A stretch of 64,000 nt of DNA from a bacterium HR34 (GTDB lineage: Bacteria; Patescibacteriota; Minisyncoccia; Minisyncoccales; HRBIN34). The DNA lies in contig BEIK01000002.1 of NCBI GenBank assembly GCA_002923395.1, positions 1,965 through 65,964 of the forward strand, given 5' to 3'. The notes under the pieces were generated by a model. The model was not told the origin of the DNA. It did no database searches and saw nothing but the letters and a program-made list of their open reading frames with translations. Positions 2 to 62,208 of the stretch are shown one piece after another; the first letter of the stretch is position 1; each line of letters starts with the position of its first letter. Made by a program: the position numbers and the translations under genes.

Positions 2-652
2 AAGTTTAACAAAGTGATAGAGTTTTTTGGCGCTGATCATCAGGCGCATAAAAAGAGAATGGAAGTAATAGCAAAAATGTTGGGTTTTAAGGGAGATTTG
101 AATATTTTAATAACGCAGTTGGTAAACTTGAAAGAAGGTAAAATGTCAAAAAGAGAAGGAAGGGTTATTTATTTGAAAGATTTAATTGATGAAGTCGGCT
201 TGGATAGCGCCAGATTTTTTTATTTACAAAAAAGTATAGATTCTCAAATGGTTTTTGATATGGAATTGGCAAAAGAAAGATCTCAAAAAAGCCCGGTTTA
301 TTATTGTCAGTACGCTTTAGTTAGATGCAAAAGTATTTTAAGGAAAAATAAAAAGAAAAATGTAAAAGTGAAAAAAATAATTTTGAAAGATCACGAAGAA
401 ATTTTATTGGCAAAAGAAGTTTTGAGGTTTCCAGAAGTTTTACATAATATCGCCAACAATTTACAAGTTCATCTTTTAATAAACTATACGATTTCGCTTG
501 CAGATAAGTTTCACAATTTTTATCATAGTTGCAATGTTTTGACAGCCGAAAAAGAGTTAAAGGAGAGCCGATTGCTTTTAGTGAAAAAAGTTGCCGAGAC
601 ATTTGAGGTAATTTTTGATATATTAGGAATATCAAAACCGTCTAAAATGTAA
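2..652 (+). CDS. argS: Arginyl-tRNA synthetase, C-terminal portion (5' end lies upstream of window)
   Basis: Frame is open to the window edge; GADHQAH, GKMSKREG (ArgRS KMSKS-equivalent) and a DALR-type anticodon-binding tail. Confidence 0.85.
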   Translation, partial: KFNKVIEFFGADHQAHKKRMEVIAKMLGFKGDLNILITQLVNLKEGKMSKREGRVIYLKDLIDEVGLDSARFFYLQKSIDSQMVFDMELAKERSQKSPVYYCQYALVRCKSILRKNKKKNVKVKKIILKDHEEILLAKEVLRFPEVLHNIANNLQVHLLINYTISLADKFHNFYHSCNVLTAEKELKESRLLLVKKVAETFEVIFDILGISKPSKM

Positions 653-656
653 AAAA

Positions 657-3600
657 ATGTTTACCAACGAAATAGAACTTCAAATTTTAAAATTTTGGAA
701 AGATAAGGATATTTTTAAAAAAAGTCTGCGAAAAAATAAAGGCAGGAAAAATTTTGTTTTTTATGAAGGTCCGCCAACAGCAAACGGAAAGCCCGGAATA
801 CATCATATTTTAGCGAGAAGTTTTAAGGATGTTATTTGCCGATTCAAAACAATGAAAGGTTTTTATGTTTTGAGAAGAGGCGGTTGGGATACCCATGGAT
901 TACCAGTAGAACTCGAAGTTGAAAAGAAACTTGGCTTGGAAAATAAAAGAGATATAGAAAGGTTTGGAATTAAAAAATTTAATGAGATGTGTAGGCAGTC
1001 TGTTTGGGAATATAAAACAGAGTGGGAAAAACTTACAGAGAGAATGGCTTACTGGATTGATTTGGAGAACGCTTACATAACTTATGATCCGAATTACATT
1101 GAAAGCGTTTGGTATATTTTAAGTTTTCTTTACAAAAAAGGGTATTTGCAAAAAGGTTATAAAGTTTTGCCATATTGCCCGAGATGCGGCACGCCCTTGT
1201 CTTCTCATGAGGTTGCGCTTGGTTATAAAAAGGTAAAGGATAAATCAATTTATGTGAAGTTTGAAATTAAAGATAAAGAGTTTGCTAAAAAATTAGGTTT
1301 TCAAGAAGAAAAAATTTACTTAATTATTTGGACAACCACTCCGTGGACCTTGCCGGCAAACGTGCTGGTCGCCGGAAATAAAAATATAAAATACGTTGCC
1401 GTAAAAGTTGGCAACGAAGTTTATATTTTAAGCAAAAAAGCAAAAGATAGCATTTTTCCAGATATTAGCGACGAGAAAGAGATTGATTCAAAAAATTTAT
1501 ATAACTTAGAGTACAAACCTCCTTATAATGTTTTGGAAAGTTTTAATGTTAAACCAAAAAGATCACATTATGTTGTTTTTGCTGATTATGTAAGCGATGA
1601 GGATGGTTCTGGTTTTGTGCACATAGCGCCGGCATTTGGGCAGGAAGATATGGATGTGGTTGAAAAAGAAAACAAAAAAAATAAAGTTAATTTGCCTGTT
1701 TTAATTACGCTTGAAGACGATGGTGCTTTCAAGAAAATAAAAGGGTTAGAATTTATTGAGGGAAAATTTGTAAAAGAAGCAGATCCCTTAATTGTGCAGG
1801 ATTTACAAAACAAAAAACTTTTATTGAAAGAACAGGTGATAGAGCATGAGTACCCTTTTTGTTGGAGGTGCAAAAGCCCTTTGCTGTATTTTGCTAGAGA
1901 TTCTTGGTTTGTAAAGACAACTTTAATAAAAGATAAAATAATAAAAAACAACAAAACCATAAGTTGGGTACCAACTCACTTGAAGGAAGGGAGATTTGGA
2001 GAGTGGCTAAAAGATCTTAAAGATTGGGCTATCTCAAGAGAAAGATATTGGGGTACTCCTTTACCAATATGGATATGCGAAAAATGCGGCAATCAAAAGG
2101 TTTTATCAAGTAAAAGTGATATTGAAAAACAAAAATTTACAACGAATACCTTTTATATTTTAAGGCATGGCCAGTCCCTTAGAAATGTTTATAATTTTGT
2201 TTCATGCTGGCCGGAAGTAAGAAAATCTCCTTTAACAAAAGAGGGTATAGCGCAGGCTAAAGAAGCAGGAAAAAAATTAAAAGGGAAAATTGATATTATT
2301 TTCACCTCTGATTTAGAAAGGACAATGCAAACTGCTCAAATAGTTGCTGAAGAAACAGGCTGCAAAGTTTTGCTGGCGAAAGAATTAAGAGAGGTAAATG
2401 AGGGCATATTTAACGGCAAAAAAACAATAGAAGTTTTTAGGTATTTTACCAAAAAATACGGTAAAGAATTGTCAAAAGAAGAATATTATCTAATGAGGTT
2501 TAGAGAAAAGGTACCAGGAGGTGAGAGTTTGTCAGAGTTACAAAAAAGAGTTTTAAGTTTTATAAAGCGCATAAACAAAAAATATAAAAACAAAAGAATA
2601 CTTCTTGTTTCTCATGAGTTGCCTTTAACAATTTTGGAATGTTCAATGAAGGGAATGAGTCCTATTGAAATAATTAAATTTAGAGAAAAGAAAATGATAA
2701 AAACAGCCGAAGTTAGAAAAATAGATTTTAAGATACTTCCATATAATGATAATTCTGAAATTGATTTTCACCGTCCGTATATAGATGAGGTTGAGTTTTT
2801 GTGTGATAATTGTTCTTCTTTAATGAAAAGAGTTCCTGATGTTTTGGATTGTTGGTTTGATAGCGGTTCTATGCCATTCGCTCAGTGGCACTACCCTTTT
2901 GAAAATAAAGATTTAATAGACAAAAGAAAACAGTTCCCAGCAGATTATATTTCAGAGGCGATAGATCAAACAAGAGGATGGTTTTATACTCTTTTGGCTG
3001 TGTCAACATTTTTGAAAGGCGTGGCTCCTTACAAAAATGTTGTTTCTTTGGGGCACGTTTTAGATGAGAAGGGAGAAAAAATGTCAAAATCAAAAGGTAA
3101 TGTTGTTGATCCTTGGCAAATGGCTCAAAAATATACAATTGATTCTGTTAGGTGGTATTTTTTTACAGTTAATCAGCCGGGAGAACCAAAACTTTTTTCG
3201 GAAAAAGCATTGGAGGCGGTTTACAAAAAATTTATTTTAACAACTTTTAATGTAATTAATTTTTTAAAGCTTTACTCAAACGAAAAAGTAAAAATTCAAA
3301 CTAATTTTTCTAAAAATAACAACATTCTTGATAAATGGATTTTATCGAAAATTAATTCTTTAACTTTTGAGGTTACAAAAGATTTGGAAAGTTATAAAAT
3401 AGTCGATGCTGCAAGAAAAATAGAAAATTTTGTTGTGGACGATTTATCTCAATGGTATGTTAGAAGATCTCGCGACAGATTTAGGGAAAGCGGAAGTGAC
3501 TTTAATACTGCTTTTTCTGTTTTATTTTTGGTTTTAAAGAAGTTATCTATTGTTATGGCGCCTTTCGTTCCGTTTTTAGGAGAATATGTTTATCAACAGT

Positions 3601-4223
3601 TAAAAAATATAAACGAAAAAGGTTTTAAAGAAAGTGTGCACTTGGAAAATTACTTTAAGCCGAATAGGAAACTCATAAACAAAAAACTTGAGTTGAATAT
3701 GGAGAAAATAAGAGAATTGGTAAATGTTGGTTTGAATTTAAGACAAAAAGCAAAAATAAAAGTAAGGCAACCACTTTTGGAAATTTATTTACACGAGTCA
3801 TTGAGGAAAATCGTAGACAAAGATATGCAAGAAATTCTGAAAGGAGAACTTAATGTTAAGAGGATAGTGTTTTTTAAAGATAGAAATGAGATCAAAAAAG
3901 ATAAAGTTACCGAGAGCGACGAGAATAAAGATATTCTATTGAATATTGAAATAACACCTGAGCTTCAAAATGAAGGCGAGATTAGGGAGTTTGTTAGGAA
4001 TATTCAGAATATAAGAAAGAAAATGGCTTTGATTCCAAAGGACTTAATAATAATTGAAGTTTCTGGAGACGAAAAGAGCAAAGAGTTTATAGAAATGAAC
4101 AAAGAGGTTTTGAAGGAAGTTTTGAAGGCAAAGGATTTAGTGTTTTATGACAATTTAACAGGAAAATATGATACAATATCAATTGGAGATAAAAAGTTTA
4201 ATATTAAAATTAAATTAGTATAA
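657..4223 (+). CDS. ileS: Isoleucyl-tRNA synthetase carrying an inserted histidine-phosphatase-like domain
   Basis: HIGH region (GKPGIHHILARS), KMSKSKGN, WAISRERYWGTPLPIW, DFHRPYID...DCWFDSGSMP; about 215 extra residues with RHG...SHE phosphatase motifs between the last two blocks. Confidence 0.9.
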   Translation: MFTNEIELQILKFWKDKDIFKKSLRKNKGRKNFVFYEGPPTANGKPGIHHILARSFKDVICRFKTMKGFYVLRRGGWDTHGLPVELEVEKKLGLENKRDIERFGIKKFNEMCRQSVWEYKTEWEKLTERMAYWIDLENAYITYDPNYIESVWYILSFLYKKGYLQKGYKVLPYCPRCGTPLSSHEVALGYKKVKDKSIYVKFEIKDKEFAKKLGFQEEKIYLIIWTTTPWTLPANVLVAGNKNIKYVAVKVGNEVYILSKKAKDSIFPDISDEKEIDSKNLYNLEYKPPYNVLESFNVKPKRSHYVVFADYVSDEDGSGFVHIAPAFGQEDMDVVEKENKKNKVNLPVLITLEDDGAFKKIKGLEFIEGKFVKEADPLIVQDLQNKKLLLKEQVIEHEYPFCWRCKSPLLYFARDSWFVKTTLIKDKIIKNNKTISWVPTHLKEGRFGEWLKDLKDWAISRERYWGTPLPIWICEKCGNQKVLSSKSDIEKQKFTTNTFYILRHGQSLRNVYNFVSCWPEVRKSPLTKEGIAQAKEAGKKLKGKIDIIFTSDLERTMQTAQIVAEETGCKVLLAKELREVNEGIFNGKKTIEVFRYFTKKYGKELSKEEYYLMRFREKVPGGESLSELQKRVLSFIKRINKKYKNKRILLVSHELPLTILECSMKGMSPIEIIKFREKKMIKTAEVRKIDFKILPYNDNSEIDFHRPYIDEVEFLCDNCSSLMKRVPDVLDCWFDSGSMPFAQWHYPFENKDLIDKRKQFPADYISEAIDQTRGWFYTLLAVSTFLKGVAPYKNVVSLGHVLDEKGEKMSKSKGNVVDPWQMAQKYTIDSVRWYFFTVNQPGEPKLFSEKALEAVYKKFILTTFNVINFLKLYSNEKVKIQTNFSKNNNILDKWILSKINSLTFEVTKDLESYKIVDAARKIENFVVDDLSQWYVRRSRDRFRESGSDFNTAFSVLFLVLKKLSIVMAPFVPFLGEYVYQQLKNINEKGFKESVHLENYFKPNRKLINKKLELNMEKIRELVNVGLNLRQKAKIKVRQPLLEIYLHESLRKIVDKDMQEILKGELNVKRIVFFKDRNEIKKDKVTESDENKDILLNIEITPELQNEGEIREFVRNIQNIRKKMALIPKDLIIIEVSGDEKSKEFIEMNKEVLKEVLKAKDLVFYDNLTGKYDTISIGDKKFNIKIKLV

Positions 4224-4226
4224 AAT

Positions 4227-4493
4227 ATGCCATTACAAAATTGGTCAACACCTTTAAAATTATATCATTTGAAAAAAATTATAGAAGAGGCAAAAAGCAA
4301 ATTTGTTATATCGTATGGAGATAAAAAAAAGTTTATTAACTTTATAGAAGATAAAATAAAAAGTAAGGGTAAAAATTATTTGAGTGAAGATATTGTAAAA
4401 GATTTGAGGGATGATATAAGAGATTGGGAGGAGAATAAAAAAACATATAATAAATATTTAAAATTTTTTGATGAGTTGTTAAGTAAGTTGTAG
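4227..4493 (+). CDS. Hypothetical small Lys/Glu-rich protein
   Basis: 88-aa ORF tightly packed between ileS and recO; no family recognised. Confidence 0.4.
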   Translation: MPLQNWSTPLKLYHLKKIIEEAKSKFVISYGDKKKFINFIEDKIKSKGKNYLSEDIVKDLRDDIRDWEENKKTYNKYLKFFDELLSKL

Positions 4494-4498
4494 TGGTT

Positions 4499-5203
4499 AT
4501 GTATTTCACTTATAAAACAAAAGCTTTTATATTGCATCAAGAAGATTCTGGAGAAGCAGATAGAATTTTAAGTTTGTATACAAAAGATTATGGTTTAATT
4601 GAAGTTGTTGCTAAAGGAGAGAGAAAATTAACATCGAAATTAAGAGCGTTTTTGCAGCCTTTTTCTTTGTGTGATGTTGAATTTGTGCAAGGAAAAAACG
4701 CAAAAACTGTAATTGACTCTCAGGTTATAGAAGATTTTTATTTTGTGAAAAAAAATTTGCAAAAACTTGTTTGCGCCACAAATATATCGAATATTATATT
4801 AAAAACAATAACAGATTCACAAAAAGATGATAATGTTTGGTCTTTGATTTTGATTGCTTTTAGTTTATTAGATAAAATAAACAGCGAAACCGATATAAAA
4901 ATTCTTTATTATTTTTTCGTTATTAAATTTTTGTCTTTAACAGGTTATCACATAGATATTTTTAAGTGTTCTGTTTGCGGAGGAAAATTATCAAAAGAAT
5001 GTTATCTTTCTTTTTTTGACAAAAATGTTGTTTGCTTTAATTGTAGAAAGTCGTCAAAAGATAATGTTAAAATAGATTTTGAAACAATGATAGTGTTAAA
5101 ATATATTTTAAGATCTCAAATTCAAGCGCTTTTAGGATTGCCCTTAAATGAAAATCATTTTAAAAAATTAGATTTAATATCAAAGCAATACATTGAAATA
5201 TGA
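4499..5203 (+). CDS. recO: DNA repair protein RecO
   Basis: N-terminal OB-fold pattern (KTKAFILHQEDSGEADRILSLYTKDYG) and C-terminal CxxC...CxxC zinc module; ATG at 4499 preferred over the track start at 4493. Confidence 0.8.
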   Translation: MYFTYKTKAFILHQEDSGEADRILSLYTKDYGLIEVVAKGERKLTSKLRAFLQPFSLCDVEFVQGKNAKTVIDSQVIEDFYFVKKNLQKLVCATNISNIILKTITDSQKDDNVWSLILIAFSLLDKINSETDIKILYYFFVIKFLSLTGYHIDIFKCSVCGGKLSKECYLSFFDKNVVCFNCRKSSKDNVKIDFETMIVLKYILRSQIQALLGLPLNENHFKKLDLISKQYIEI

Positions 5204-22979: not shown

Positions 22980-23050
22980 TGCGGGGTGGACCAGTAGTAG
23001 GTCGCCAGTCTCATAAGCTGGAGGCCCAGGTGCAATTCCTGGCCCCGCAA
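22980..23050 (+). tRNA. tRNA with CAU anticodon (Met; initiator, elongator or Ile2 identity unresolved)
   Basis: Hand-folded cloverleaf: acceptor TGCGGGG/CCCCGCA, D stem GACC/GGTC (A11:U24), anticodon loop CTCATAA, T arm CCAGG-TGCAATT-CCTGG; no encoded CCA. Confidence 0.85.
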
Positions 23051-23057
23051 CAAATTT

Positions 23058-23085
23058 ACCCGCCTTAAATTGTGGCGGGTTTTAT
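23058..23085 (+). terminator. Rho-independent terminator-like hairpin
   Basis: ACCCGCC - 9-nt loop - GGCGGGT followed by TTTAT. Confidence 0.55.
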
Positions 23086-23109
23086 GTTATAGTATTATTG
23101 TAGTTTTAA

Positions 23110-23182
23110 GCCGGCGTAGCTCAGTGGTTAGAGCAGGGGCATCATAAGCCCAAGGTCGCGGGTTCAAATCCTGCCGCCGGCA
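23110..23182 (+). tRNA. Second tRNA with CAU anticodon (Met or Ile2)
   Basis: Acceptor GCCGGCG/CGCCGGC, D arm GCTC-AGTGGTTA-GAGC, anticodon loop ATCATAA, T arm GCGGG-TTCAAAT-CCTGC; no encoded CCA. Confidence 0.88.
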
Positions 23183-23185
23183 CTA

Positions 23186-23207
23186 GATTTGAACCCGACA
23201 GAGGGGA
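23186..23207 (+). repeat. tRNA-trailer motif: inverted copy of the preceding T arm plus GAACCCGACAGAGGGG
   Basis: GATTTGAACCCG is the exact reverse complement of T-arm bases 23159-23170; GAACCCGACAGAGGGG resembles the start of the 124-nt module at 23893, 24363, 24526 and 24689. Confidence 0.6.
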
Positions 23208-23223
23208 TAATAAACAAATTTTT

Positions 23224-23790
23224 ATGTTAATTTATTTCATAACTTCTAATTCTAAAAAATTTAATGAAGTTAAAGAGTTTTTTAAAGATGTAAAAAATAT
23301 TCAGATAAAGAGAATAAATTTAGATATTCCCGAGATTCAATCAGTTGAGGTTAAAGAAATTGTAAAATTCAAGATTAATTACGTTCTTAAAAATTATAAT
23401 TTTAAAAATTTTTTAGTAGAAGATACAGGTTTTTATATAAAGTGTTTAAATTATTTGCCAGGTCCTTTTATAAAATGGTTCTTACTTTCAATCCGCTCTA
23501 AGGGTTTATATGAGATTTGCAATTTTTACAGAAATTATAAAGCAGAAGTAAAAATAGCTCTCGGATTAAGATTAAAAAACAAAAGTTATATTTTCAAAGG
23601 TAGCGTTAAAGGAAGAGTTGTAAAGCCAAAGAAGCGTTTATCTAACAGTGAGATATGGTGGGATAATATTTTTATGCCGGAAGGTTTTAGTAGAACTTTT
23701 AGTGAAATGAGTTCAGAAGAAAAAAATTTAATAAGTCACAGAGGAAAGGCATTAAGAAAATTGAAAAATTTTTTAATAAAAATAAAATAA
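23224..23790 (+). CDS. rdgB: Non-canonical purine NTP pyrophosphatase (RdgB/HAM1 family)
   Basis: ITSNSKKFNEV, EDTG, ISHRGKAL motifs of the Ham1 fold. Confidence 0.8.
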   Translation: MLIYFITSNSKKFNEVKEFFKDVKNIQIKRINLDIPEIQSVEVKEIVKFKINYVLKNYNFKNFLVEDTGFYIKCLNYLPGPFIKWFLLSIRSKGLYEICNFYRNYKAEVKIALGLRLKNKSYIFKGSVKGRVVKPKKRLSNSEIWWDNIFMPEGFSRTFSEMSSEEKNLISHRGKALRKLKNFLIKIK

Positions 23791-23810
23791 TAGAATATAT
23801 GGCGGCCGTA

Positions 23811-23883
23811 GCTTAAAGGTAAAGCATCAGGCTGTGGCCCTGAGGACTACGGGTTCGAGTCCCGTCGGCCGCCCAAGGCGAAA
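23811..23883 (+). tRNA. tRNA-His (GUG) with encoded G-1
   Basis: G-1 + GCGGCCG/CGGCCGC + C73, anticodon arm TCAGG-CTGTGGC-CCTGA, T arm ACGGG-TTCGAGT-CCCGT. Confidence 0.93.
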
Positions 23884-23888
23884 ACCCC

Positions 23889-24012
23889 ACAGAGGGGGTC
23901 GGGGAGATTGGGTATCTCCCCGTGAAGGAAAATAGCTCCGACTTTATGTCGGAGCGCAAGAAACCATGGGTTTCTTGGGAGCGAAGCGACGGGTTCGAGT
24001 CCCGTCGGCCGC
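23889..24012 (+). repeat. 124-nt GC-rich hairpin module, copy A (tRNA-His-linked); candidate structured ncRNA or miniature mobile element
   Basis: 121/124 identical to copies at 24359-24482 and 24522-24645; contains three 8-bp inverted repeats and ends in GGGTTCGAGTCC. Confidence 0.85.
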
Positions 24013-24025
24013 CCAGCAGAAAGAT
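23999..24025 (+). repeat. Duplicated 3' end of tRNA-His (T arm + acceptor 3' strand + CCA-position bases), orphan fragment
   Basis: ACGGGTTCGAGTCCCGTCGGCCGCCCA is identical to 23859-23885, 140 nt upstream. Confidence 0.9.
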
Positions 24026-24164
24026 TCCATATAAGGCGTTAGGGAGACCTTGATTTAGGTCTAGGAACAGGTTGAATATCTTCTTCCGTATGACAACAGG
24101 CAGATCAATCATTATATAGGTAGGTCCAGTCATATTCCAGTATACACAAAAAATGGAAGGGTGC

Positions 24165-24250
24165 CGGAGTGGTCTAACGGAACGGCCTGGAGAGCCGTGC
24201 CTCCTTGTGGGGCTCGTGGGTTCAAATCCCACCCCTTCCGCATAATTGTC
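24165..24250 (+). tRNA. tRNA-Ser (GGA), long variable arm
   Basis: Acceptor GGAAGGG/CCCTTCC, anticodon arm ACGGC-CTGGAGA-GCCGT, long variable arm, T arm GTGGG-TTCAAAT-CCCAC. Confidence 0.9.
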
Positions 24251-24257
24251 CCCGTAG

Positions 24258-24330
24258 TTCAACAGGATAGAACGAGTCCCTCCTAAGGACTAAATGGGGG
24301 TTCGAGTCCTCCCGGGGACACCGAGCAAAG
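24258..24330 (+). tRNA. tRNA-Arg (CCU)
   Basis: Acceptor GTCCCCG/CGGGGAC, anticodon arm AGTCC-CTCCTAA-GGACT, T arm GGGGG-TTCGAGT-CCTCC. Confidence 0.92.
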
Positions 24331-24358
24331 CGAGGTGGCAACCGGAGACGAGAACCCC

Positions 24359-24482
24359 ACAGAGGGGGTCGGGGAGATTGGGTATCTCCCCGTGAAGGAA
24401 AATAGCTCCGACATTATGTCGGAGCGCAAGAAACCGTGGGTTTCTTGGGAGCGAAGCGACGGGTTCGAGTCCTCCCGGGGAC
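24359..24482 (+). repeat. 124-nt hairpin module, copy B (tRNA-Arg-linked)
   Basis: Same core as 23889-24012. Hairpins: 24381-88/24394-401, 24415-22/24428-35, 24438-45/24449-56. Confidence 0.85.
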
Positions 24483-24521
24483 ACCGAGCAAAGCGAGGTG
24501 GCAACCGGAGACGAGAACCCC

Positions 24522-24645
24522 ACAGAGGGGGTCGGGGAGATTGGGTATCTCCCCGTGAAGGAAAATAGCTCCGACATTATGTCGGAGCGCAAGAAACCGT
24601 GGGTTTCTTGGGAGCGAAGCGACGGGTTCGAGTCCTCCCGGGGAC
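24522..24645 (+). repeat. 124-nt hairpin module, copy C
   Basis: Identical to copy B, offset by 163 nt. Confidence 0.85.
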
Positions 24646-24771
24646 ACCGAGCAAAGCGAGGTGGCAACCGGAGACGAGAACCCCACAGAGGGGGTCAAGA
24701 AAATTTAGATACAAGATATGAATAGCAAATTACAAGTTTAATATTGAAAAAACCAAATTTAAAAATTATTA

Positions 24772-24800
24772 TTGAATTTATCTTATTAATTTGTTATATT
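24772..24800 (+). promoter_or_regulatory. Candidate promoter for tRNA-Asp
   Basis: TTGAAT, 17-nt spacer, TATATT; 15 nt upstream of the tRNA. Confidence 0.35.
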
Positions 24801-24815
24801 TATTATGTAAAATAT

Positions 24816-24890
24816 GGACCCGTGGTGTAGCCCGGTTAACACGCCTCCCTGTCACGGAGGAGATCGAGGGTTCAAATCCCTTCGGGTCCG
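24816..24890 (+). tRNA. tRNA-Asp (GUC)
   Basis: Acceptor GGACCCG/CGGGTCC, anticodon arm CCTCC-CTGTCAC-GGAGG, T arm GAGGG-TTCAAAT-CCCTT. Confidence 0.92.
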
Positions 24891-24916
24891 CGGTAATTAA
24901 AATATAAATTAAAAAT

Positions 24917-50019: not shown

Positions 50020-50090
50020 GCGGGTATGGTGCAACGGCAACACGCTTCCTTCCCAAGGAAGAAATACGGGTTCGACTCCCGTTACCCGCA
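50020..50090 (+). tRNA. tRNA-Gly (CCC)
   Basis: Acceptor GCGGGTA/TACCCGC, anticodon arm CTTCC-TTCCCAA-GGAAG, T arm ACGGG-TTCGACT-CCCGT. Confidence 0.9.
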
Positions 50091-50111
50091 CAAATTATAC
50101 ACATTAACAAT

Positions 50112-61791: not shown

Positions 61792-62199
61792 GTGGATGCT
61801 TTAAGGCAACCGCTTTCCGACTATTGTCGGAAAGAGGAAACTCCGGACATCCTGCTCCGATTTTTTCGTCGGAGTATAAAACCCTGCGGGTAAAGGCCCG
61901 CCGCCGTAAACTTATTGTAGTTTGCGGTAGGGGTGCGAACAGAGACGAGGTTGCCAGTAATGGCGCCTGTCCTTTTCGCTTCAAAATAATTTTGAAGCGA
62001 AAAGGAAAGCTCTGCGGTAACGCAGAGGTGAAACGGCTAAATCCCAGGGGGATGCAAGGCTAAAACCTGCTAAAAATCTAGCAGGTATGGGTAAGCCGCA
62101 ATGAGTGTTATGGGTAACCATAACACCAAGATAAATGGTTGCCACTCTTCCTGCTTGAAATAGGAAGAGCACAGAATCCGGGTTATTAAAGCTTCCACA
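61792..62199 (+). ncRNA. rnpB: RNase P RNA (bacterial type A-like)
   Basis: P1 pairing GTGGATGCTTTAA / TTAAAGCTTCCAC, conserved AGAGGAAACTCCGGAC (CR-I/P4) and CACAGAATCCGGGTTAT (CR-V/P4); GC-rich island in AT-rich DNA. Confidence 0.9.
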
Positions 62200-62208
62200 A
62201 AATAGACC

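Follow-up and report, generated by a model that had tools for sequence, protein, structure and literature searches.

Aminoacyl-tRNA synthetases are among the most conserved enzymes, and extra catalytic domains in the bacterial ones are rare and usually informative, as with editing domains. The closest described relative of the enzyme considered here is the isoleucyl-tRNA synthetase (IleRS) of SR1/ACD80, which was described as falling into four segments, separated by two phosphoglycerate-mutase domains and one Nudix domain, an arrangement noted from annotation only and assigned no function (Kantor et al. 2013, mBio, PMC3812714). That one sentence is the only mention we found in the literature, where we came across no follow-up study of the architecture, and neither phosphatases nor Patescibacteria come up in a 2026 survey of how IleRS domains evolved. 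Here we analyze a 64,000-nucleotide stretch of DNA from bacterium HR34, an uncultured bacterium with a small genome (contig BEIK01000002.1, positions 1,965 to 65,964 of the forward strand; hereafter the window), in which the ileS gene encodes an IleRS with a histidine-phosphatase (HP) domain nested inside it. The initial annotation proposed this nesting and knew of no phosphatase within any aminoacyl-tRNA synthetase, a claim that the SR1 report had already overtaken. Like the SR1 protein, the window enzyme is a candidate-phyla-radiation IleRS interrupted by a domain of the phosphoglycerate mutase (PGAM) family, His_Phos_1; unlike it, as far as a comparison by description goes, the window enzyme has a single such domain at one site and no Nudix match, and no Nudix-bearing IleRS was present among the matches to the window protein, to its two-copy relative P0138 or to the domain. 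Relatives with two to four phosphatase copies, described below, match the SR1 description of several insertions. A Parcubacteria-wide distribution, a free-standing form in the gene order argS-HP-ileS and a fusion to arginyl-tRNA synthetase (ArgRS) are not reported for SR1; the free-standing argS-ileS gene, the ArgRS fusion and nesting in IleRS at three or more sites in one to four copies are new here. The architecture is not unprecedented, and what the window belongs to is a large, public but essentially undescribed family of phosphatase-bearing IleRS enzymes in Patescibacteria.

Among characterized phosphatases, PhoE (1ebb/1h2e), the phosphoserine phosphatase PspA (4ij5/4ij6) and the alpha-ribazole phosphatase CobC (6e4b/6nru) share the fold, the size of about 200 residues and the catalytic set of the window domain (TM-scores 0.72-0.83), but they are free-standing proteins only 22-25% identical to it, and their family cut-offs are missed, so that their specificities are not transferable. 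A branch-1 phosphatase is likewise joined to a second catalytic domain in RNase H/acid phosphatase (NF005567), in the mycobacterial MutT1 Nudix-phosphatase (NF052459) and in PFK-2/FBPase-2; these are end-to-end fusions, whereas the window domain is nested in a loop, and the insert scores 87.5 bits against a cut-off of 326 for NF005567, its best NCBIfam match, and 15.8 against 475 for MutT1. On the host side, the P. megaterium-type IleRS2 (PMC10485003; 8c8u-8c8w) is the same kind of enzyme as that of the window, with GIHH and DUF5915, but the characterized IleRS2 enzymes have about 4 residues where the window IleRS has 218. The NCBIfam family NF040702 (ileS_w_GNAT) also combines IleRS with an unrelated catalytic domain, but in that case an acetyltransferase, and the window protein, at 324.7 bits against 1999, is not a member.

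The host gene lies at 657..4223 (+) as a single uninterrupted open reading frame (ORF) encoding a type-2 IleRS of 1188 residues, 100% identical to the NCBI protein 'Isoleucine--tRNA ligase [bacterium HR34]' from an unclassified bacterium, and it is the only IleRS seen within the 64-kb window. An exact-sequence search of a contig index gave no record of the protein. The whole ORF scores 892.7 bits with the IleRS equivalog TIGR00392 (cut-off 621.4), and Pfam resolves it into tRNA-synt_1, split around His_Phos_1, followed by Anticodon_1 and DUF5915, the latter sitting at the C-terminus in the type-2 organization. The nearest structures are the P. megaterium IleRS2 entries 8c8u, 8c8v and 8c8w and the T. 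thermophilus enzyme 1ile, with Foldseek TM-scores normalized to the target of 0.78-0.89 overall and 0.78-0.81 for P. megaterium IleRS2; type-1 enzymes score far lower. The class I signature in its swapped form GIHH (G47-H50; 795..806, +), which aligns with PGVHH of 8c8w, the editing motif TTTPWTLP of connective peptide 1 (CP1; residues 226-233, +) and the WFDSG motif (residues 733-737, +) were read directly, as was KMSKS (residues 808-812; 3078..3092, +). Across an alignment of 80 relatives all four are invariant or nearly so, with G47 and H49 of GIHH and the whole of KMSKS invariant. The window IleRS is a type-2 enzyme with every host motif intact, in keeping with the continuous frame and undamaged flanking motifs that were described at the outset. 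Brkic et al. (2023, PMC10485003) showed that GXHH makes type-2 IleRS hyper-resistant to mupirocin, and because the swapped motif is present, mupirocin-like inhibitors are predicted to have no effect on the whole phosphatase-bearing clade. The MupA and MupB mupirocin-resistance models were also tried, and at 792.8 and 776.1 bits the protein falls well below their exception-model cut-off of 1900.

Between G478, which follows the first cysteine pair (C474-x-x-C477-G), and D703 of the DFHRPYID block lie 224 residues, whereas the corresponding gap in insert-less relatives (P0025, P0029, P0036, P0037) and in P. megaterium IleRS2 is about 17-30, an excess of about 195-205 residues. The large excess was correctly seen in the initial annotation, and its size, given there as about 215, is close to this figure. 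By length against insert-less IleRS, the whole insert, made of an N-terminal linker, the phosphatase domain and a C-terminal linker, spans residues 485-702 (2109..2762, +), beginning SKSDIEK and ending NDNSEI-DFHRPY; the start given previously, 2110, misses the codon boundary at 2109 by one base. The two CxxC pairs of the zinc knuckle, C474/C477 (2076..2087, +) and C716/C719 (2802..2813, +), flank it and do not vary across the 80 aligned sequences. In P. megaterium IleRS2 the point that corresponds to the insert falls between residues 476 and 481, and the HUP catalytic core of that enzyme consists of residues 40-168 and 513-632 with CP1 and connective peptide 2 (CP2) between them (PMC10485003). 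Since this position falls ahead of the second HUP half at 513, we place the insert in the zinc-knuckle-bearing CP2, and on this alignment it is predicted to be a peripheral excursion from the knuckle and not part of the catalytic core proper, where it had at first been located. The insertion point is identical in every nested homolog, with the '...IGSxxEL' segment that comes behind the first CxxC on its N-terminal side and 'xDxHRPYID' on its C-terminal side, and it is kept even in homologs that have no zinc cysteines.

The phosphatase domain itself, residues 498-690 (2148..2726, +), is delimited by Pfam PF00300, AlphaFold2 (AF2) and Foldseek. PF00300 matches residues 500-676 of the full protein with 120.4 bits (E 1e-34), and the profile check that had been suggested for the insert alone returns 125.5 bits (E 2.8e-36), against a cut-off of 21.7. 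The AF2 model of the full-length protein, built with 80 homologs in the alignment, has a mean predicted local distance difference test score (pLDDT) of 87.8 and a predicted TM-score (pTM) of 0.80, and its most confident part is the phosphatase (about residues 496-690, pLDDT 93-96); the domain modeled alone reaches a pLDDT of 93.5 and a pTM of 0.90. Foldseek finds 317 PDB matches to the domain model at E<=0.001, of which the best 50 are all members of the histidine-phosphatase family; the best superposition is with PspA 4ij6 (TM 0.83/0.80, root-mean-square deviation 2.5 A), and CobC 6e4b and PhoE 1h2e are also close. Profile searches rank the same three families (PhoE 2e-31, PspA 1e-30, CobC 7e-24), and TM-scores normalized to the target are 0.72-0.80 for the short phosphatases versus 0.55-0.64 for mutases. 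This domain of about 195 residues is a genuine, well-folded branch-1 histidine phosphatase, closest to the short phosphatases PhoE, PspA and CobC. Profile and fold agree with the nesting first proposed for this ORF; the accompanying label 'PGAM-like' holds for the superfamily and fails for the mutase, since the cut-offs for cofactor-dependent phosphoglycerate mutase (dPGM) are missed and PspA, CobC and PhoE fit better.

All four motif strings quoted initially (ILRHGQS, LTKEGIAQA, SDLERTMQTA, VSHELPL) are present, and conservation of the catalytic residues was assessed over 85 nested and free-standing homologs. In the RHG motif (R503, H504, G505; 2163..2171, +, as first annotated), the arginine and the histidine, the latter the predicted phospho-acceptor, are invariant (85/85), as are the phosphate-binding arginine R555 of the SDLER motif (2319..2321, +) and the distal catalytic histidine H653 of the VSHE motif (2613..2615, +); E579 (2391..2393, +), the predicted general acid, is E in 78/85 and D in 7/85. 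Among the 80 relatives, mean pairwise identity is 49.9% in the phosphatase, compared with 55.9% in the anticodon-binding region, 46.4% in the C-terminal region and about 75% in the Rossmann parts, and the linkers around the phosphatase show no gaps and no length variation. Because catalytic residues, regional identity and linker length are all conserved, we take this to be a functional domain in a fixed position and not decaying cargo, and the phosphatase is apparently catalytically active, to judge from its residues.

All of the best 120 clusters at 90% identity carry PF00300 together with PF00133; these proteins, drawn from NCBI, JGI, ENA and Logan assemblies, are 1111-1361 residues long and 48-55% identical to the window protein. 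With the domain alignment as query, at least 254 relatives were found among GTDB species represented by one genome each, and 72 of the best 80 loci have the N-terminal part of IleRS, the phosphatase and the C-terminal part of IleRS in one reading frame, nearly all of them labeled as Patescibacteria/Parcubacteria lineages. The distribution check called for by the initial annotation therefore argues against a chimera. An exhaustive search with the domain against 1.84 billion cluster representatives gave 1198 matches at E<=1e-10, and the best 150 of these (representatives at 50% identity) comprise 78 free-standing phosphatases, 61 linked to IleRS and 11 others; the 61 IleRS-linked proteins have one copy in 51 cases, two in 9 and four in 1. 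The phosphatase-bearing IleRS is an old and widespread trait of Patescibacteria/Parcubacteria, and the phosphatase occurs in four arrangements: as a separate gene between argS and ileS, often running into the ileS start, nested in IleRS, fused to the C-terminus of ArgRS, and in tandem phosphatase-only proteins. One free-standing homolog (L066:1542-2168, +) is on a contig labeled 'archaeon GW2011_AR19' and falls within Patescibacteria sequences in the domain tree, which could stem from transfer among ultra-small bacteria and archaea found together, or from a binning error.

Mapping the copies to IleRS landmarks gives at least three insertion sites. The first is that of the window, which sometimes holds two tandem copies (for example P0338, P0370, P0378 and P0395); the second lies between WFDSG and DQTRGWF (P0138, P0319, P0440), and the third past KMSKS, ahead of the anticodon-binding domain (P0391, P0440). 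Two to four copies were found in nine relatives, P0138 (1361 residues), P0306, P0319, P0338, P0370, P0378, P0391, P0395 and P0440, with four in the partial protein P0306, and nearly all copies keep RHG or RHA. In P0138 the second copy is 39% identical to the first and 50% identical to the domain of another lineage, and the nearest relatives of this protein (62% identity) have a single copy; because of this low identity and the single-copy relatives, we regard the second copy as an independent insertion. A neighbor-joining domain tree with PhoE as root gathers all free-standing forms into one poorly supported sub-clade with the window domain and leaves only nested forms on the deeper branches. 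All pairs of free and nested forms are 50-70% identical, that is, old, and it is likely that there have been several switches or recombination events between the two.

The free-standing form ties the phosphatase to the same neighborhood. The nearest free-standing homologs are proteins of about 190-210 residues, 43-51% identical to the insert, and in four loci (L001, L002, L005, L008) they are encoded between argS and an ileS without the insert. The spacing is tight, with the phosphatase gene beginning 4 nt past the argS stop in L002 and L005 and its last base overlapping the ileS start in L001 and L005; downstream follow recO and a DUF7619 gene. The window has the same synteny with the slot empty: the 3' end of argS lies at 14..652 (+), its stop at 650-652, and the ileS ATG comes 4 nt later at 657. 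The order argS-HP-ileS is present in 12 of 15 free-standing loci, a set that includes the GTDB loci and three more divergent representatives, the exceptions being L057, L093 and L066. L057 reads argS-HP-recO with no ileS in the locus, and in L090/L091 (8001-10070, +) the same syntenic position is occupied by a complete ArgRS extended at its C-terminus by the phosphatase (protein P0353, found in two independent samples), with ileS absent from the locus and methionyl-tRNA synthetase as the class I enzyme further downstream. Beyond this locus, protein P0368 (L089:8001-9707, +) is a fusion of His_Phos_1, PUA_2 and ATP sulfurylase (TIGR00339, 405 bits versus 323), and its gene stands immediately before that of a sulfotransferase within a glycosyltransferase cluster, with no APS kinase seen in the 17.7-kb locus; P0372 joins the phosphatase to a QueC-like PP-loop protein, the QueC match being weak at 49 bits against a cut-off of 150. 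In L093 (3070-4278, -) a divergent free-standing phosphatase stands tail-to-tail with a glutamyl-tRNA synthetase-like gene (HVIRGDDHLSNTPRQ ... KLSKR), a third class I synthetase neighbor, possibly by coincidence. We also noticed that in L001 a pair resembling a diversity-generating retroelement, bAvd and an RVT_1 reverse transcriptase (3313-4819, +), followed by a 1015-residue ORF, separates argS from the phosphatase gene and so breaks the otherwise tight order. In L076 (4459-8475, +) an IleRS with a nested phosphatase runs into an HD phosphohydrolase match (PF01966/HD_3, residues 1144-1211) that replaces the last ~60 residues of IleRS; this is a single metagenome-assembled genome, and the join may be genuine or may stem from an assembly or frameshift error.

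What might such a domain do inside a synthetase? The initial annotation suggested a phosphorylated nucleotide or tRNA-end substrate, or a moonlighting fusion in a reduced genome, and the free-standing gene, the ArgRS fusion and the multi-copy insertions at several sites now bear on these guesses. We think it probable, with some reserve, that these observations are best explained by an active phosphatase domain coupled to class I synthetases, of which the IleRS CP2 insert is one instance. The protein would then be one polypeptide with two independent active sites. The phosphatase site would follow the canonical two-step chemistry, with H504 taking the phosphoryl group to form a phospho-histidine, R503, R555 and H653 holding that group, and E579 protonating the leaving group. 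Because the domain is recurrently fused or adjacent to class I synthetases, a Rosetta-stone argument suggests that it is made, and probably acts, together with them. The substrate class we favor would be a phosphate-bearing product or by-product of ATP-adenylation chemistry, with pyrophosphate (PPi) as the first candidate and adenosine 3'(2')-phosphates, PAP and damaged tRNA ends among them, as the second. What IleRS, ArgRS, ATP sulfurylase and PP-loop enzymes share is an attack on the alpha-phosphate of ATP in which pyrophosphate is released, so PPi is the simplest common denominator of the partners; PPi or another ATP-adenylation product is accordingly our preferred guess for the substrate, a weakly supported one. 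A bulk activity of this kind fits the copy-number expansion better than a site-specific one. Fusions of APS kinase, ATP sulfurylase and pyrophosphatase exist in some eukaryotes, with pyrophosphatases of family I, and offer a conceptual parallel in which a phosphohydrolase is tied to a PPi-releasing enzyme, PPi hydrolysis by the window domain being something that we infer. Taken further, the domain may be an unrecognized partner that hydrolyzes a product or inhibitor of the adenylation cycle (PPi, an adenosine 3'/2'-phosphate or a damaged tRNA end), selection for this coupling having driven the repeated insertions into IleRS and the fusion to ArgRS; we put this fuller version forward only tentatively, as a possibility on which we would not count.

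Several observations weigh against these proposals. We know of no branch-1 histidine phosphatase with established activity as an inorganic pyrophosphatase. All NCBIfam equivalog cut-offs are missed by the insert, whose sequence cannot assign specificity. The phosphatase stays beside argS when ileS is elsewhere (L057, L090), so the tie is not specific to IleRS; the divergent gene in L093 also adjoins NiFe-hydrogenase subunit genes, the ATP sulfurylase and QueC-like fusions are single clusters each, and genes in very compact genomes can end up side by side with no functional tie. The trees give little firm ground for the direction of evolution, for the free-standing sub-clade has a bootstrap of only 3-13%, the neighbor-joining tree of the host scatters the insert-less enzymes, and its topology conflicts with that of the insert tree. 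A membrane pyrophosphatase is present in at least one OD1 genome (PMC3812714). Apart from these points, no paper in the searched library pairs members of the histidine-phosphatase superfamily with pyrophosphatase or nucleotidase activity. On whether the domain could stand in for a missing pyrophosphatase, a tblastn search with E. coli Ppa gave no match in about 1 Mb of partial genomes, which says little.

The main rival to a coupled phosphatase is a hitch-hiking one, that is, a housekeeping enzyme captured by its argS and ileS neighbors for co-expression only, with no biochemical link to aminoacylation. The loci just discussed, in which the phosphatase remains without ileS (L057, L090/L091), would be expected on this account, as would fusion with either neighbor; the free-standing forms are at least as diverse as the nested ones (78 versus 61 of the best 150 representatives), proximity would favor local duplication into an adjoining gene, and extra copies could simply raise dosage. 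Proximity alone is nonetheless hard-pressed to explain entry into at least three internal loops of an essential enzyme with the catalytic residues intact; the conserved length and sequence of the linkers and the high pTM suggest fixed docking, and the partners found outside the locus are again enzymes that release pyrophosphate from ATP. On balance we find mere hitch-hiking rather unlikely, though it deserves to be taken seriously. An improbable idea is that the domain is a nucleic-acid or nucleotide end phosphatase, one that would strip the 3'(2')-phosphate off tRNA acceptor ends or pAp-like nucleotides and so restore chargeable tRNA or clear an inhibitor at the synthetase. PAP, a 3'-phospho-adenosine nucleotide, is the inhibitory by-product of the sulfotransferase pathway, and the ATP-sulfurylase fusion does lie directly upstream of a sulfotransferase; association with two or three class I synthetases, the HD phosphohydrolase match joined to IleRS in L076 and the Nudix domain reported in SR1 IleRS point the same way. 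Yet there is no reason for tRNA-Ile alone to need repair, copy-number expansion is unexpected for a site-specific role, and we know of no branch-1 histidine phosphatase that acts on RNA ends.

Other explanations fare worse. HipA-like kinase toxins target class I synthetases, and a built-in protein phosphatase could reverse such inhibitory phosphorylation of the enzyme; all three insertion sites flank the KMSKS/ATP-site half of IleRS, the superfamily includes phosphatases that act on proteins or on phospho-histidine, and there is a weak SixA match (26 bits versus a cut-off of 74.5). The best sequence and structure matches are to small-molecule phosphatases instead, the ATP-sulfurylase fusion does not fit, and no kinase gene was seen in the loci examined, all of which makes this idea highly improbable. 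We give scarcely more than passing credence to the view that the insert is the true dPGM of the cell, moonlighting inside IleRS. It does give weak matches to dPGM models, and the RHG..N signature is common with mutases, but the distal motif is SHE/SHG, and a glycolytic dPGM was rejected both by score, the insert alone reaching 82.9 bits against 225 with dPGM_arch, 80.7 against 261 with GpmB and 55 against 81.7 with pgm_1, and by size, since at about 195 residues it is shorter than a mutase (about 230-250) and has none of the extra mutase elements, in addition to the lower mutase TM-scores given above. Beyond the unusual architecture itself, nothing favors an artefact or selfish element, be it a chimera, an intein or a decaying inserted pseudo-domain, and we regard this as effectively refuted, its probability being negligible. 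An assembly chimera is ruled out by junctions common to independent NCBI, JGI, ENA and Logan assemblies. An intein, which the initial annotation had already rejected, is ruled out as well, for the Pfam scan finds no Hint or intein family and the insert lacks the splice-junction residues, a Cys/Ser start and a His-Asn end; a recent mobile insertion is excluded by the absence of flanking repeats and by even base composition across the insert and its flanks, and the catalytic residues are invariant.

Why should a phosphatase in a synthetase matter? Public annotation of these proteins says only 'isoleucine--tRNA ligase', while across much of Patescibacteria an apparently active phosphatase has persisted over a very long span inside or next to IleRS, inserted more than once and sometimes multiplied. 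Its substrate, once found, would point either to a new auxiliary step of tRNA charging in ultra-small symbiotic bacteria or to a striking case of domain insertion by genome compaction; if the domain does prove to be a partner of the adenylation cycle, it would add a new functional module to the translation machinery of a major bacterial radiation. Nested and free-standing forms make a ready comparison pair, and the CP2 site offers a natural, well-tolerated insertion point in a class I synthetase, of possible use in engineering.

A few other features of the window are worth recording. An unannotated ORF of 88 residues (4227-4493, +) lies between ileS and a recO-like gene, and its syntenic counterpart in L001 is a 142-residue ORF without a Pfam match. 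The window has no tRNA-Ile gene; it does contain a run of six tRNA genes at 22980-24891 (+), two tRNA-Met (CAT) followed by His, Ser, Arg-CCT and Asp, and a separate tRNA-Gly-CCC at 50020-50091 (+). At 61794-62200 (+) lies a bacterial class A RNase P RNA, a divergent one, its 102 bits standing just above the Rfam gathering threshold of 100.

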